NCBI GenBank assembly: GCA_019057475.1
Contig: DXJO01000049.1
Coordinates: 1 to 38,440, forward strand
Direction: 5' to 3'
Source: Candidatus Thorarchaeota archaeon
Lineage (GTDB): Archaea; Asgardarchaeota; Thorarchaeia; Thorarchaeales; Thorarchaeaceae
Length of the DNA: 38,440 nt
Below are positions 12,602 to 22,041 of this stretch, one piece after another. Each line of letters begins with the position of its first letter. The stretch's first letter is position 1. The position numbers and the translations under genes were made by a program. Under the pieces are notes generated by a model. The model was given only the letters and a program-made list of their open reading frames with translations. It did no database searches and was not told the origin of the DNA.

Positions 12602-12765
12602 CCAGAACAGCTCCATAGAGGTTGTTAGCCGGAGCAATTTAACAATTCTGATGGGTTACTAGTACTAATGAAGGGTGAAACAAGTGTGTTCTGGTGGAAG
12701 TTGGACTGAGGGTAAGTATACATATTGCGTTCAGCTGGAAATGACGAATTGTTTGAGGTTAGTTT

Positions 12766-13524
12766 CTATTTGGATTTCAAATCTTTCCTTATCATTCTAG
12801 CGACGTTGAGCGGCCAATGACAAATGATGTTAAACTTTTGATATATTGTATCTGTCACTTGTCTTGATCCATTGTTTCGACCTATTATGGGAGAGAATGC
12901 ATGATTGCAAGAAGCGAGATATACTTTAACATCTCCAGTTTGTGAATAGAAATCAAAAATATGTGCAGCCTCTGCGAGAATCGCTTGATCAGTTGGGTCT
13001 GCACCTTTTTTCTTAAGACGGAATAATTGCTTGTGGGTTAGATGTTCATGTTTTAATATTGCTTCGTAGACACTTTTTTCAAAAGTATATGCAATCCGAA
13101 CATTGGTTAAATCAGCAAGTGTATCAAGTGCATTGTAGAGGTTCTCTACTTTTCTCAACCATTCTCCTCTAATTTCGGGCAAGATCGGTTCTCGGGTCAA
13201 TATTTCTAGATAGCTTTCAAGTCTATCTTCACATTTCCCAAGAATATGAGAGCCGAGTCGAAGGATGGCGTTCATATCCATGTGAGGTTTGAATTGTCGT
13301 AAGGTCTTAATCAGGACCTTGTTCAAAACACTATGCGTTTCATCCTCAATTGTTTTTGTGATAATGCCTATACGTTTACCCATGTTCTTCTTCAGAAGAC
13401 CGATTAGGCTCATAGAATGATCATGGAAATCATGCTTGAATGGTTCATCAAAGTCTTCGATTGATGCCACGAAAACTGATGCTGCAAGAAGTACATTGCT
13501 ATCTAATAGTGCTTTAATCTTCAT
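12766..13524 (-). CDS. PIN-domain-like protein in an AT-rich islet
   Basis: N-terminal ALLDSNVLL, IEDE, DPTDQAILAEA and YLASCN spaced like PIN acidic motifs. Confidence 0.6.
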   Translation of the reverse strand: MKIKALLDSNVLLAASVFVASIEDFDEPFKHDFHDHSMSLIGLLKKNMGKRIGIITKTIEDETHSVLNKVLIKTLRQFKPHMDMNAILRLGSHILGKCEDRLESYLEILTREPILPEIRGEWLRKVENLYNALDTLADLTNVRIAYTFEKSVYEAILKHEHLTHKQLFRLKKKGADPTDQAILAEAAHIFDFYSQTGDVKVYLASCNHAFSPIIGRNNGSRQVTDTIYQKFNIICHWPLNVARMIRKDLKSK

Positions 13525-14038
13525 TTACTAACCCCATCACAATATCTTGAAATACTTTGAATCCTTTCTTTCGGATTTTTGCGGGGATAGATTGTATGTC
13601 GTTTTCATTAGCTGGTAACATGTTGGCATGTCTTGCCATGTTTCTTAATACTCTAGCAGTTTGAAAGCTTTGATTTCCAAATAAGGATGGAGGTCCATCT
13701 TTTGCTTCCATCATGAGGGTTATGGAATCTATCAAACTTGGTAATACAGTGATTGCATCTTCAGTAACCCTTGGATTGTCTTTGGTTTCTTTGGCAGTTT
13801 TATATCGTTGAATCATTTGTCCTAGAATTAGAGCACCATTGCGTGAAACATGGAACATTGGAAATGAGGCTTCGATATTGTTGTCTGTATATGTTTCAAG
13901 CCAGTGATTTTCCATATGTTCAAACTCAGCTAACAATGTTTCTAGAGGTTCAATAATCGCTAAATCCACTTTTCCAGATTTTTTGGATTCCTCTACAAAA
14001 TTCATTATTGTACTGAATGTTTCTGATATGTTCAGCAT
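13514..14038 (-). CDS. Hypothetical alpha-helical protein, overlapping partner of the PIN gene
   Basis: 174-aa ORF with ATG start, 11-nt overlap with the PIN gene and the same AT-rich composition. Confidence 0.7.
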   Translation of the reverse strand: MLNISETFSTIMNFVEESKKSGKVDLAIIEPLETLLAEFEHMENHWLETYTDNNIEASFPMFHVSRNGALILGQMIQRYKTAKETKDNPRVTEDAITVLPSLIDSITLMMEAKDGPPSLFGNQSFQTARVLRNMARHANMLPANENDIQSIPAKIRKKGFKVFQDIVMGLVNED

Positions 14039-14250
14039 AGGTGTGGTTCCCTCTCGGATGGTTTTTATTCAATATTCCCGGCGAAATCATGTCGAGTCAT
14101 GCAATACATAGACTTGTCTACGTCTTACATATTTAACATTAACTGGAAGAACAATGCGTGAAAAGAAGCCGAGCAAAAAGAAGACAGCGAAGTGAAGATT
14201 ATAAGGCATGACTGCGGATTTCTAGTTGAAATACTGCATCGGGTGGTAAC

Positions 14251-15786: not shown

Positions 15787-18132
15787 TTATTTCTTTCGAC
15801 GCCCTCGAAAACCTGGGAACCAGTATATCGTACTCTTAGAGTAGCTTTTCTGCACCTTTGCCACTCCATTCTCAGCAAGAAGGTCAAGTGCGTTGGTTAC
15901 ACGATCCTCAGTCCATCCAAGACCAACAACAACATCTTCGATTGTTAAGCGACCATCTCTTTTTGCGGCGAGGCCTAGCACTTGTGTGGGGTCCTTGGTT
16001 AGTTCGACAGGCATGAATTTCACTAGGCGTGTGCCATTCTCAAGTCTTGTCATGCCTTGGATGAGCCCTTCTTTGGTCATAGAAGTAACAATGTTTTCTA
16101 TCTCTTTCGACTTGGTGGCCCATCCAAGGGAATCCAATCTAACCAAGAATTCGGAGAACATCATTATGCCCCCGGATTCCTTGGATTCCTGTGCTAATCG
16201 AAGGATGTCTCGTCTCAGACCCTCAAGCCTATCGTCCCGCTTCAGCAAACGTTTGACCATTCCTTTCTTTTTCGTCGCTTCAGCAATCCATGACTCGGGC
16301 TCATAGCCGAGCTCGGTTAGAAGCTCCTCAAATGCACTTCTATAAGCAGGTATGGTGAGCAGCGTGCTTCCTTGCTTTTGGAATGCATCTCTCAGCCTAG
16401 CTCTGATTTCGTCGATGTGTCGCGCCCGTTCCATTAGTTTGTCAAACCTGATAGTGAGACGTTCCTCGTCAGAGAATGGATCTAGGGTCACCGGTATAAC
16501 CAAGTTACTCGTTGAGCTTAGAGTGAACTCGATTGGCCTGTCGTGGTAGTCGTTTGCTCGAATTACTCCCTCATAGCGGCTCTTGGGCAGGGACGCCTTA
16601 ATCACTCCGGCAGCATCTGACCGAAGAAGAAATGCGCCCAGTTCTAGAAGGGCCCCCTCAATGGGTTTGCCTGAATCATCGTGCACGTGAAATCTAACGA
16701 AGCAAGTTGTATCAGTGCCTGAAAGAAGAGGGGACACCTTGCTGAGTTTCATTGGCTTCTTCTTGTTTTCTGGAAATCCAGAAATGATGCCGCTGAGTTC
16801 GTTAAGCAGATTCACTTTCACTAAGCCATCGGATTGCAGAGATTTGCCACCCTCCCTGATTAGGGAACGAGTGACTCCAATGGTGAGAAGGTTGTTATTC
16901 TTCGAGGAGGTCCGCAAGAATTTTCTGAATCCAACATCATTGTTGGCGCGGTGTGTGAGTTCGTCCGTAATCGAGCTGAGCCCGGAATCGGCAGCAATAG
17001 GATTGACATAGTCACGACGCCGGCCAACTTGTTGGTCAATGGGAAGCAAGTACGATGGAGGGTATACCGCGACACGCAGACGGCCCTTCTTGGAGAAACC
17101 AACCATTATGAAGGGAATCATCAGGGTGACGCCGTCTTTATCCGGGCCAACACCACTGCAAGCAACAAGAAAGGCTTCGTGCAACAACCGACGCTGATTC
17201 TCAATTCCACTTTGGGCGCTCTCAGTCCGTGAATGTAATTCCTCTTGCTGTATAAGCAGATCCCTGAAGGTTTTCTGGACCTGGGTCAGAATCTCTTCAC
17301 GTTTGGCAATATCTCTCTTCAGAGCCTTCTTCCGACCCTTCAAGGTCGTTTCGATCTCTTGCATCTTTGAGGACCGTTTACCTGCCGAAGAATCTCTCGC
17401 TGTCATTTGTTCAATCCGTGACTCCAGATTCGCGACCTCTTTCCGAAGAACGGTTATTCGTTTATTGAGTCTGGTGGTTTTCGTCGATGTCTGTGATTCC
17501 TGTTCAGAAACGATGTTCCGCATCTGAGATGCAACTTCTTCATCGACGTGAGAGAGAGCAGCTCCAGCATTGTGAAGAACTCGGAATGTTTCTTGAAGAG
17601 CCTCAGCACATTTTTCAACATCTGAATCCTTCAACAGCTTCGGAAGAATGAGGGCGTACTCTTCAAGCCTCTCTTTGGTCGGCCACTCCAACATCTGTGA
17701 TACGCATGCTGCTAATGGCCCAGATAGCACACCAAGGTGCTCCTGTGATGCAGCGGTTGAAACGGTGTTGACTACTGACAGACAATCGCGGATACAATCA
17801 AGAAGTTCGGAGCTAGAATGGCTACCCCTCACGCGATCCAGCAAATCTCCAAAATTGATTTCTTGATGACTGATAAGACTAGCAGAACTCATGCCCTGAT
17901 ACTCGATAAGAAAGCATCCTGATGATAGTGTCGAGGGAACCACTCTAATCGGAAGATATGTCTTGAGGACGAACTCGATATCATTGTCATTCTTTGTAGC
18001 CAAAGCGTTGATCAAGATTGCTGCCAACGCATAGTCCTCTGGCACCGCTTGCTTAACCGGCTGCCCATCAGCCAACCGAGTGGTTCTGGTTGCCATGACA
18101 GGGATGATGAGTTGACGAGTTGGAGAGTCCAT
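15787..18132 (-). CDS. Multidomain ESCRT-II-like protein: N-terminal alpha/beta domain + coiled coil + carboxypeptidase-regulatory/Ig-like domain + C-terminal EAP30 (Vps22/Vps36) tandem winged helices
   Basis: The C-terminal ~200 aa (PAYRSAFEELLTELGYEP..GGIMMFSEF..PVELTKDPTQVLGLA..GRLTIEDVVVGLGWTEDRVTNALDLLAENG..YWFPG) follow the Vps22/SNF8 pattern; VHDDSGKPIEGA beta-sandwich domain. Confidence 0.8.
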   Translation of the reverse strand: MDSPTRQLIIPVMATRTTRLADGQPVKQAVPEDYALAAILINALATKNDNDIEFVLKTYLPIRVVPSTLSSGCFLIEYQGMSSASLISHQEINFGDLLDRVRGSHSSSELLDCIRDCLSVVNTVSTAASQEHLGVLSGPLAACVSQMLEWPTKERLEEYALILPKLLKDSDVEKCAEALQETFRVLHNAGAALSHVDEEVASQMRNIVSEQESQTSTKTTRLNKRITVLRKEVANLESRIEQMTARDSSAGKRSSKMQEIETTLKGRKKALKRDIAKREEILTQVQKTFRDLLIQQEELHSRTESAQSGIENQRRLLHEAFLVACSGVGPDKDGVTLMIPFIMVGFSKKGRLRVAVYPPSYLLPIDQQVGRRRDYVNPIAADSGLSSITDELTHRANNDVGFRKFLRTSSKNNNLLTIGVTRSLIREGGKSLQSDGLVKVNLLNELSGIISGFPENKKKPMKLSKVSPLLSGTDTTCFVRFHVHDDSGKPIEGALLELGAFLLRSDAAGVIKASLPKSRYEGVIRANDYHDRPIEFTLSSTSNLVIPVTLDPFSDEERLTIRFDKLMERARHIDEIRARLRDAFQKQGSTLLTIPAYRSAFEELLTELGYEPESWIAEATKKKGMVKRLLKRDDRLEGLRRDILRLAQESKESGGIMMFSEFLVRLDSLGWATKSKEIENIVTSMTKEGLIQGMTRLENGTRLVKFMPVELTKDPTQVLGLAAKRDGRLTIEDVVVGLGWTEDRVTNALDLLAENGVAKVQKSYSKSTIYWFPGFRGRRKK

Positions 18133-21231: not shown

Positions 21232-22041
21232 CTATTTCTTAGGGGTCTTCTTCTTGGGCTTTGCTTCCGCCTTCTTCTTAGTGACCTTCTTCTTGGGCTT
21301 TGCTTCCGCCTTCTTCTTAGTGACCTTCTTCTTGGGCTTCGCTTCCGCCTTCTTCTTGGTCACTTTCTTCTTGGGCGTTTCTTCAGCCCTTTTCTTAGTG
21401 ACTTTCTTCTTGGGCTTTGCCTCAACCTTCTTCTTGGTCACTTTCTTCTTGGGCTTTGCCTCAGCCTTCTTCTTGGTCACTTTCTTCTTGGGCTTCTTCT
21501 CTTCAGGTTTCGGAACTTCGGCAATAAGAGATTCCGCAGTTTCCGCGAGGGGCTCAACTACAATCTCAGGTTGTCGAGCCTTTTCTTTCACCTTGCGATC
21601 GTCGAGAGCGCGTCGCTGCCGTGCAAGTTTGCCAGGTTTCGCGGATTCAGCCGCTGAAACTGCACCAAGAGCTATGTCTATTTCTTTGGTAATCACAGGA
21701 CGCTTGGGCACAGAGGATGCGATTTCCTCAAGGACGTCTACAATCATAATTGGTTTGCCGCCGTCCCGCTTCTCGATCTCTGCAGGAGTCGTGTAGACAA
21801 CAAAGCCACTTTCGTGAATATAGGGAACAATCACGCCTTCAGTTTCCTTGTCCTTGAGTATTCTGCGTGCAATGCTCATCCTGATGTTGAACCGCTGGGC
21901 AAGGTCATAACTAGTGACTGATTTTGCCTTCTTCACGTACTCATCAATTTCGCCAATTGTTTCTGGTTTGGGCACAGCATCTCGGACAATCTTCTCTGTC
22001 TTTGTTGCCGTTCGTCCCCACTTCTTGCGGCTGATAGCAAT
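21232..22041 (-). CDS. rps25e: Ribosomal protein eS25 (S25e) with long Lys-rich repeat extension
   Basis: The frame extends upstream of the track start to ISRKKWGRTATKTEKIVRDAV, then VTSYDLAQRFNIRMSIARRILKDKETEGVI..VVYT (eS25 winged helix). The only plausible start after AGGAG is ATT at 22041. Confidence 0.85.
   Translation of the reverse strand: MAISRKKWGRTATKTEKIVRDAVPKPETIGEIDEYVKKAKSVTSYDLAQRFNIRMSIARRILKDKETEGVIVPYIHESGFVVYTTPAEIEKRDGGKPIMIVDVLEEIASSVPKRPVITKEIDIALGAVSAAESAKPGKLARQRRALDDRKVKEKARQPEIVVEPLAETAESLIAEVPKPEEKKPKKKVTKKKAEAKPKKKVTKKKVEAKPKKKVTKKRAEETPKKKVTKKKAEAKPKKKVTKKKAEAKPKKKVTKKKAEAKPKKKTPKK
21235..21489 (-). repeat. Tandem 39-bp coding repeat (KKKVTKKKAEAKP x6 plus partial)
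   Basis: Six near-identical 13-aa units followed by KKKTPKK at the eS25 C-terminus. Confidence 0.95.

Follow-up and report, generated by a model that had tools for sequence, protein, structure and literature searches.

ESCRT-II is a eukaryotic signature system that is cited for pre-eukaryotic membrane sorting in Asgard archaea, where its Vps22 subunit is usually encoded with vps25, ESCRT-III and vps4. The 38,440-nucleotide stretch of a Thorarchaeia (Asgard) archaeon genome analyzed here (the window) encodes a Vps22-like region in another setting: at the end of a 781-residue protein, three times longer than canonical Vps22 and preceded by 553 extra residues that form a head, a stalk and a sandwich. 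What does a Vps22 unit do on such a protein, at a distance from other ESCRT genes? The ORF list and translation assign this protein (P0001, the long Vps22 fusion) to a single open reading frame at positions 15787 to 18132 of the minus strand, on which all coordinates below also lie. Approximately 125 full-length homologs sharing 40 to 92% identity argue that this frame is not a chance occurrence, and a scan of all 781 residues found no hydrophobic transmembrane segment, which points to a soluble protein. From the N to the C terminus, the fusion comprises an α/β head split by a hairpin, a transthyretin-like sandwich and a complete Vps22/SNF8 unit. The AlphaFold2 model (mean pLDDT of 82) and sequence searches place the domain boundaries, nearly residue by residue, where an earlier note made from the DNA letters had drawn them.

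A complete and strongly conserved Vps22 at the C terminus

The fusion ends in a complete Vps22 of 230 residues, which is strongly conserved. The earlier note had recognized an EAP30-type double winged-helix module here, and phmmer, Foldseek and hhalign searches bear this out as a full Vps22 at residues ≈554 to 781 (positions 15787 to 16473). Residues 557 to 774 match human SNF8 (2zme_A) with an E-value of 3.6e-9, and the fusion matches yeast Vps22 (1u5t_A) with an E-value of 8.5e-7 (phmmer, PDB); the only PDB chains that it matches at the sequence level in phmmer are those of Vps22. The C terminus is a specific Vps22 homolog, rather than one of the generic winged helix-turn-helix regulators that were considered as the alternative. 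The top PDB matches of the model in Foldseek are 3cuq_A, 2zme_A and 1u5t_A, with E-values of 1.6e-7 to 7.5e-7. The Pfam EAP30 match (PF04157) spans residues 585 to 758 and scores 24.4 bits on the protein (hmmscan) and 28.5 bits in a six-frame genome search, relative to a gathering cut-off of 26.8, and the ortholog in a genome of the sister family (G108) reaches 70 bits.

The likeness to canonical Asgard Vps22 (asCOG cog.002769; Makarova et al. 2024, PMC10936438) extends from end to end of residues 554 to 781, with the invariant residues retained. An hhalign comparison of the two gives a probability of 99.95% and an E-value of 1e-37 over 218 columns, and the canonical Asgard profile matches the fusion with an E-value of 5.9e-46 over positions 23 to 240 of 242; the same profile matches the short Vps22 of this genome more weakly and over positions 91 to 240 only. 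The difference lies in the N-terminal helical region of the fusion (residues 554 to 650, positions 16183 to 16473), which pairs with residues 23 to 119 of human SNF8 in phmmer, covers profile positions 23 to ≈110, has a column identity of 0.69 and is absent from the short thorarchaeal Vps22. The fusion keeps the full ancestral Vps22 core, whereas the ESCRT-cluster copy does not.

In the model, the C terminus adopts a fold of tandem winged helices with helices ahead of them. Alignments, conservation and the model agree on winged helix 1 (residues 651 to 710, positions 16003 to 16182), with invariant GG (654 and 655) and GW (670 and 671) pairs, and on winged helix 2 (residues 711 to 781 plus the stop codon, positions 15787 to 16002), with invariant D714, W740 and R744 and a YWFPG end. 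In eukaryotic Vps22, winged helix 2 is the Vps25-binding domain. All of the positions that are invariant in the Vps22 family (GG, D, W..R and FPG) are kept in the fusion, and column identity is highest in the Vps22 part (0.60 to 0.70, vs 0.29 to 0.44 in the N-terminal module), which together argue that interaction surfaces are under selection.

The head, stalk and sandwich that precede Vps22

The first half of the head (residues 1 to 168, positions 17629 to 18132) showed no recognizable known fold, and an Atlas structure search with it returned nothing at 0.9 or above. A longin or roadblock match for residues 1 to 150 was likewise not found with Foldseek or VIA, using a low-confidence model of the isolated fragment (pLDDT of 68). 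This model, of residues 1 to 168 folded alone, is worse than that of the same residues within the whole protein, and we therefore read them as one half of a composite head completed by residues 322 to 460. A structure search with the whole model against the PDB is uninformative on the head, as the list is filled by coiled-coil, sandwich and winged-helix matches. The second half of the head (positions 16753 to 17169) is modeled as a β hairpin and four helices; it is basic, with a net charge of +8, and carries conserved GFSKKG and VGRRRD motifs. Between the two halves lies the coiled coil by which the earlier note had seen the α/β domain interrupted (residues 169 to 321, positions 17170 to 17628): in the model, it is a stalk of two antiparallel helices (169 to 245 and 253 to 321), with conserved R221, L222, R225 and L229 opposite R267, A270, L271, R273 and D274, and its matches in Pfam, NCBIfam and the PDB are of the coiled-coil type only. 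A linker (residues 461 to 475, positions 16708 to 16752; pLDDT below 50 at 462 to 473, column identity of 0.13) leads to the carboxypeptidase-regulatory or Ig-like sandwich that had also been anticipated ahead of Vps22. This domain (residues 476 to 553, positions 16474 to 16707) is a seven-strand prealbumin-like sandwich of the CarboxypepD_reg family (PF13620) in a cytosolic protein.

The head-and-stalk module of ≈460 residues is an independent archaeal protein family, unnamed and new, found in Bathyarchaeota and Asgard archaea. It also occurs as stand-alone proteins of ≈540 residues in Bathyarchaeota and ≈529 residues in Promethearchaeota, and an hmmsearch matched P0229, P0239, P0245 and P0254 (E-values of 3e-19 to 1e-16). 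The fusion aligns with the Bathyarchaeota proteins over both head halves and the hairpin (hhalign, 99.5%, E-value of 1.6e-22, 400 columns), including the P..FY..Y.....YPP block of the second head half. Structural neighbors of the module in the Atlas (TM scores of 0.59 to 0.72) include Promethearchaeota proteins and a Thorarchaeota zinc-ribbon fusion. No ESCRT genes or conserved neighbors accompany the stand-alone modules in the Bathyarchaeia contexts examined. A local HMM found no second paralog of the N-terminal module in the genome analyzed here; a Bathyarchaeota-derived profile is insensitive in this genome, as it misses even the fusion itself.

A long N-terminal extension recalls Vps36, the long eukaryotic ESCRT-II subunit with an N-terminal GLUE/PH domain; the extension of the fusion is unrelated, with no PH, GLUE or NZF/zinc-finger domain in Pfam searches and no such fold in the model, and the fusion is nearer to Vps22 than to Vps36 by sequence (phmmer). 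Asgard genomes have been described as lacking Vps36 and encoding a single short Vps22-like gene (Hatano et al. 2022, PMC9192718). Similar in general plan are arCOG09748 of Thermococci (a helical domain, a coiled coil, an unknown globular domain and a C-terminal winged helix) and Asgard cog.002441 (two winged helices, SB and zinc ribbons); for both, see PMC11188069. In these proteins, as in the fusion, a Vps22-like winged helix follows a coiled coil and a globular domain of unknown type, but they lie inside ESCRT loci, have another domain order and show no sequence relationship with it. Several Vps22 paralog architectures are surveyed in PMC10936438, none like the fusion. Neither this fusion architecture nor its accessions KXH70249.1, TFG31621.1 and RDE17312.1 appear in the accessible parts of the surveyed papers and of the Makarova supplements, and we found no description of the 781-residue protein in the literature searched.

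Genomic association with a ligase/hydrolase/vWA gene set

As the earlier note had remarked, Vps25, ESCRT-III and Vps4 are absent from the window; all three are found together on another contig of the genome (C26), in an intact ESCRT cluster with a short Vps22 of 269 residues. The fusion is thus a second, long Vps22 paralog in a genome with one copy of Vps25. None of the 15 loci examined places vps25, ESCRT-III or vps4 near the fusion gene, which differs from canonical Asgard Vps22 in this lack of linkage and in its separate clade. In an EAP30 tree, the fusions form long-stemmed clades apart from canonical Vps22; their attachment point is unsettled, and a single clade of all fusions is not rejected (AU p of 0.28).

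The fusion is present in ≈66 of 76 Thorarchaeaceae genomes, in a sister family (G108) and in Asgardarchaeia-type MAGs. What it co-varies with is a gene set comprising an ATP-dependent carboxylate-amine ligase of the GCS2/YbdK type, extended by an Ig-like tail, together with a protein of ≈225 residues, a CDC48_N-vWA protein and an amidohydrolase. The first ≈480 residues of the ligase (≈1150 residues in all) match YbdK, with catalytic segments aligned to the E. coli enzyme (profile E-value of 2.2e-9). It shares this catalytic part with the YbdK/GCS2 ligases (PF04107; PDB 1r8g and 1tt4) and differs from them in its long Ig-like tail and in its vWA, amidohydrolase and long Vps22 companions.

Adjacency of the fusion and this set is found in three distant lineages. 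The order fusion, small gene, ligase is shared by the sister-family genome and by G004, the sole representative of another class among the genomes compared. In the latter and in an independent metagenome contig, the arrangement is fusion, (small gene), ligase | vWA, amidohydrolase, and the two fusions concerned are only 38% identical. In Thorarchaeaceae, the fusion occupies a separate locus, unlinked from the ligase set, yet the genes disappear together: fusion and ligase are both missing in G005, G016, G027, G037 and G093 (genomes 95 to 99% complete), and a further genome, G046, has no fusion and only a truncated ligase relative of 33% identity. The vWA and amidohydrolase genes are also missing in G005, G016, G027 and G046 and are present in the control genome G098, and the site of the fusion is cleanly excised in genomes without it. 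Since the congeners G236/G290 and G069 retain the genes, at least three independent co-losses are required, a count that derives from MAGs and from kin that are not fully independent. Four additional genomes that seemed to lack the fusion (G206, G212, G281 and G173) also miss the universal p395 gene, so that the region is taken to be unassembled there, and they were left out of this count. One genome (G055) encodes a very divergent fusion and gives no ligase match. By comparative genomics, then, the fusion is a dedicated component of the ligase/225-residue/vWA/amidohydrolase set, and this coupling is new. The dependence is not strict for the ligase, as relatives of the ligase domain occur in Asgard families without fusions, and genomes that lost the fusion retain canonical Vps22, which indicates that core ESCRT function does not require it.

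Candidate roles of the fusion and its neighbors

The fusion may connect the ligase/hydrolase/vWA set with the membrane-remodeling machinery that these archaea share with eukaryotes. In the reading that we favor, at a probability of roughly 45%, it is a second, long ESCRT-II-type subunit, the head of which docks on the ligase set while the Vps22 end brings ESCRT. The head, stalk and sandwich would bind the set itself or a substrate marked by it; the Vps22 end would engage the sole Vps25, possibly in a heterodimer in which the short Vps22 takes a Vps36-like part; and this would in turn draw ESCRT-III and Vps4 to the docking site, a recruitment that we infer. The fusion would thereby carry a built-in adaptor analogous to the GLUE-domain extension of Vps36, which serves ubiquitinated cargo in eukaryotes. 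Of the earlier proposal of an alternative ESCRT-II adaptor acting on a different cargo or site, this retains a genuine Vps22 in a second, long paralog away from the ESCRT cluster and recasts the cargo or site as coupling to the ligase set. The fusion is a concrete candidate for the way in which archaeal ESCRT-II could be directed to cargo that is not ubiquitinated, and the solution of a short Vps22 plus a long targeting paralog would also have arisen outside eukaryotes.

That the fusion is never encoded with ESCRT genes in the loci examined, falls in long-stemmed clades and is dispensable for the persistence of canonical ESCRT would also suit an exapted scaffold, in which the Vps22 fold serves the ligase/hydrolase/vWA system as a protein- or nucleic acid-binding platform and no longer engages Vps25 or ESCRT-III. 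We consider this unlikely, because the Vps22 part is the slowest evolving and lies nearer to the pan-Asgard consensus than the thorarchaeal ESCRT-cluster Vps22, which is unexpected after release from ESCRT-II. Somewhat less probable again is a stand-alone adaptor, as the earlier note had proposed. The fusion would form its own ESCRT-II-like complex with Vps25 and recruit ESCRT-III wherever the head and stalk recognize a cargo or membrane site, the ligase link reflecting only shared gene-content ancestry. The complete, conserved Vps22 unit, the conserved basic patch in residues 322 to 460 as a possible recognition segment and the unlinked locus in Thorarchaeaceae all agree with it, but neither the adjacency to the ligase, seen in three divergent lineages, nor the independent co-loss of five genes on three or more occasions is easy to explain without functional coupling.

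YbdK/GCS2 enzymes belong to the same superfamily as PafA and Dop of pupylation. A speculative and rather improbable reading is a nonubiquitin tag-and-sort pathway in Thorarchaeia and Asgardarchaeia, in which the ligase would write an amide (isopeptide-type) mark on proteins, the amidohydrolase would erase it, the vWA protein and the head and stalk would recognize the mark or the enzyme, and the Vps22 end would pass the marked cargo on to Vps25, ESCRT-III and Vps4. If true, this would be an independent analog of the ubiquitin-ESCRT route, to our knowledge previously thought to be the sole cargo signal for ESCRT-II. Finally, a chromosome or nucleic acid organizer, with an SMC/Rad50-like head and coiled coil and ScpB/SelB-like tandem winged helices binding DNA or RNA, is highly improbable: weak NCBIfam matches to an archaeal SMC-related protein and Rad50 (E-values of 1e-3 to 4e-3) and a structural tie of SelB winged helices with Vps36/Vps22 speak for it, but the former are confined to the coiled coil (residues ≈150 to 320), searches of Pfam and NCBIfam revealed neither a P-loop nor an ATPase head, and the C terminus is specifically Vps22 by sequence.

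A module of p395, an Arf-like GTPase and CC186 lies divergent from the fusion gene and was rejected as a functional dependency. CC186 was considered as a steadiness-box protein and discarded, with only a weak Pfam CdvA match (E-value of 0.007) and none in a PDB search; an Arf-like gene near the fusion in G004 is not orthologous. Four genomes that lack the fusion (G005, G016, G027 and G046) retain the whole module, with YdjM directly beside p395, and this persistence makes the association merely syntenic.

Architecture of the giant Vps22 fusion

The giant is encoded by a single 781-codon open reading frame on the minus strand (window 15787-18132), and its start agrees with the conserved N-terminus of ≈125 full-length homologs (40–92% identity), every one of them labeled hypothetical and, where an organism is named, assigned to Thorarchaeota. 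We modeled the protein with AlphaFold2 from a 45-sequence alignment and obtained a confident prediction (mean pLDDT 82). In this model, strands and helices (residues 1–168) lead into two long antiparallel helices (169–245 and 253–321), a beta hairpin with four helices (322–460), a disordered linker (461–475), a beta-sandwich (476–553), and finally a 39-residue helix, further helices, and two winged helices (554–781). The EAP30 and sandwich coordinates proposed in the earlier note are right to within a few residues. Residues 322–460 are basic (net +8) and harbor conserved GFSKKG and VGRRRD motifs; no transmembrane segment was found in the protein.

The earlier assignment of the C-terminus to the Vps22/EAP30 family is borne out by a phmmer search against all PDB sequences, which returned significant E-values for Vps22 chains only, including human SNF8 (E 3.6e-9, residues 557–774) and yeast Vps22 (E 8.5e-7). 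Foldseek with the model placed the same three Vps22 chains on top, followed by Vps36. A profile of the canonical ≈245-residue Asgard Vps22 matches the giant over profile positions 23–240 (E 5.9e-46), with an hhalign probability of 99.95%. In hmmscan, Pfam EAP30 falls narrowly under its 26.8-bit cut-off (24.4 bits), which is exceeded by the giant in a six-frame search (28.5 bits) and by the ortholog from G108, the sister-family genome (70 bits). On these sequence matches and the fold of the model, we assign the C-terminus to Vps22. This is also the best-conserved region, with column identities of 0.60–0.70 versus 0.29–0.44 in the N-terminal module.

That N-terminal module is, by profile matches and structural neighbors in the ESM Atlas, a protein family in its own right. 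In a profile search of 1.8 billion representatives, ≈540-residue Bathyarchaeota proteins match giant positions ≈45–450 only (hhalign 99.5%, E 1.6e-22, 400 columns). The ESM Atlas model of one of these proteins has as neighbors a 529-residue cluster from Promethearchaeota (TM 0.67) and, at TM 0.59 each, the Thor giants and a 552-residue Thorarchaeota cluster with Zn-ribbons; the Promethearchaeota family consists of the head-and-stalk fold alone. An HMM search of G000, the genome from which the window comes, revealed no second head-and-stalk copy. Residues 1–168 fold more poorly alone (pLDDT 68) than in the whole protein, and we therefore read 1–168 and 322–460 as parts of a single predicted composite head, with the hairpin projecting from it. 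A structure search found no known fold for this head, although the poor quality of the isolated model makes this a weak negative. No P-loop was found in the giant, and SMC/Rad50 matches are confined to the coiled coil.

Distribution and relation to the short Vps22

We scanned 301 Asgard genomes with a profile of the giant family. Full-length giants are found in ≈66 of 76 genomes of Thorarchaeaceae, the family to which the window belongs, and in G108, the sole sister-family genome; G004, of another class, encodes a divergent full-length giant (24% identity over residues 318–779), and Vps22 genes in the other families encode ≈250 residues only. An all-against-all profile search of the 1.8 billion representatives also retrieved relatives of 760–785 residues named Candidatus Asgardarchaeia.

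Hatano et al. 2022 (PMC9192718) report one Vps22/36-like gene per Asgard genome and an absence of Vps36. G000 (96% complete) has a standard ESCRT cluster on contig C26, comprising a Zn-finger/PH protein, ESCRT-III, Vps4, Vps25 (single copy), and a 269-residue Vps22. In G000, G108, and G004, the match of the short Vps22 to the canonical profile does not begin until position ≈91, versus position 23 for the giant; by sequence, the giant is a second and more "complete" Vps22 paralog. For a short Thor Vps22, KXH75178.1, the supplement of Makarova et al. 2024 (PMC10936438) places a steadiness box at residues 1–70. Phylogenetic analysis of the EAP30 module separates three fully supported, long-stemmed clades: giants of Thor, giants of the Asgardarchaeia type, and short Vps22s of Thor. 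The giants lie outside the Thor short Vps22 clade, and the tree does not resolve the deeper branching order. A topology test does not reject a single clade of all giants (AU p 0.28), which does not establish monophyly.

The giant is genetically coupled to a ligase set

After the giant, G108 and G004 both carry a gene of 214–235 codons and then one of ≈1140 codons, the latter homologous between the two genomes (37% identity over 700 residues). A profile of the ≈1140-residue protein matches E. coli YbdK (E 2.2e-9) with aligned ExE, HxH, and E.R..D segments, which identifies it as a predicted YbdK/GCS2-type carboxylate-amine ligase; its long tail gives Ig-like matches. Genes for a CDC48_N-vWA protein and an amidohydrolase extend this array in two cases, G004 and an independent metagenome contig encoding a giant only 38% identical to that of G004.

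Full-length ligase orthologs turned up only in the three families with giants. Both genes are absent from five Thorarchaeaceae genomes that are 95–99% complete (G005, G016, G027, G037, and G093), and in G046 (97% complete) the giant is missing and the ligase is represented only by a truncated relative (708 residues, 33% identity). The vWA and amidohydrolase genes are also absent from G005, G016, G027, and G046; in the control genome G098, both are present, side by side. Giant and ligase are kept in G236 and G290, of the genus of G005, and in G069, of the genus of G046, indicating at least three separate losses. The one exception is G055, in which a very divergent giant occurs without any ligase match. 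Four fragmented MAGs seemingly without the giant also lack the neighboring gene p395, so the region is merely unassembled there.

In G000, the set is unlinked to the giant and lies on contig C56, with the 225-residue protein, ligase (1156 residues, Ig-like tail), and DUF92 membrane protein genes at 37.3–42.6 kb and the vWA and amidohydrolase genes at 48.6–51.5 kb. These belong to a loose cluster (37.3–54.2 kb; L055:9304-14597 and L113:2600-8228) that also encodes an 887-residue protein with amidohydrolase-like and vWA-like regions. A second ESCRT-III (Snf7) gene is located ≈17 kb upstream (C56:20136-20618).

The giant thus combines an Ig-like sandwich and an independent head-stalk module with a Vps22 unit that is complete and constrained, and it is genetically coupled to the ligase/hydrolase/vWA set. 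We propose that its Vps22 end would still bind Vps25, and perhaps also the short Vps22, thereby bringing ESCRT-III and Vps4 to the target of the head, stalk, and sandwich. The main rival explanation, exaptation of the Vps22 fold as a scaffold within the ligase system, is mildly disfavored because the Vps22 part is highly conserved and close to the pan-Asgard consensus. ESCRT-II paralogs are described as diverse in Asgard archaea in the text and searched supplements of Makarova et al. 2024, in which the architecture of the giant was not found, and the literature searched yielded no mention of the accessions of three giant orthologs. What is new here is the connection between the giant and the ligase set with its hydrolase and vWA companions.

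Gene order around the giant

The Thorarchaeaceae gene order is gltX–YdjM–giant, divergent from p395–Arf-like GTPase–CC186, a conservation shared with everything else 8 kb either side. In G005, G016, G027, and G046, YdjM directly abuts p395 and the GTPase genes are intact; the giant has therefore been cleanly excised, and the GTPase module is independent of it. The YdjM beside the excision site in G027 (L109, contig C20, 8966-9737) matches in three pieces overlapping by a few bases, is frameshift-like, and may be a pseudogene.

In the window, two genes (174 and 252 residues) lie between gltX and YdjM (12660-14150), where GC falls to 0.41; they have no counterpart in 15 syntenic loci of relatives, in which gltX directly follows YdjM, and look like a strain-specific inserted islet. 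An insert of ≈4.9 kb separates giant and p395 in L045 (G164:C3, 9850-14700). Divergent upstream of the giant, G108 encodes a 256-residue protein (L048, contig C21, 6521-7291) with a weak ANCHR-like B-box zinc-finger match (E 7e-4), and both Asgardarchaeia-type loci encode a protein of ≈840 residues (L049, G004:C7, 9471-11993; L114, 7306-9432). The latter two share 21% identity (E 1e-9), are without Pfam domains, have no blastp homolog in G000, and may also belong to the ligase set.

The eS25 homolog at window 21232-21975 aligns with relatives over its first ≈120–230 residues only, and its lysine-rich tail differs between genomes. Weak, subthreshold EAP30-like matches (E 1e-3 to 1e-4) within a 711-residue open frame of G000 (C54:23576-23893) and a 1221-residue open frame of G027 (C28:61015-61329) may represent further winged-helix paralogs.
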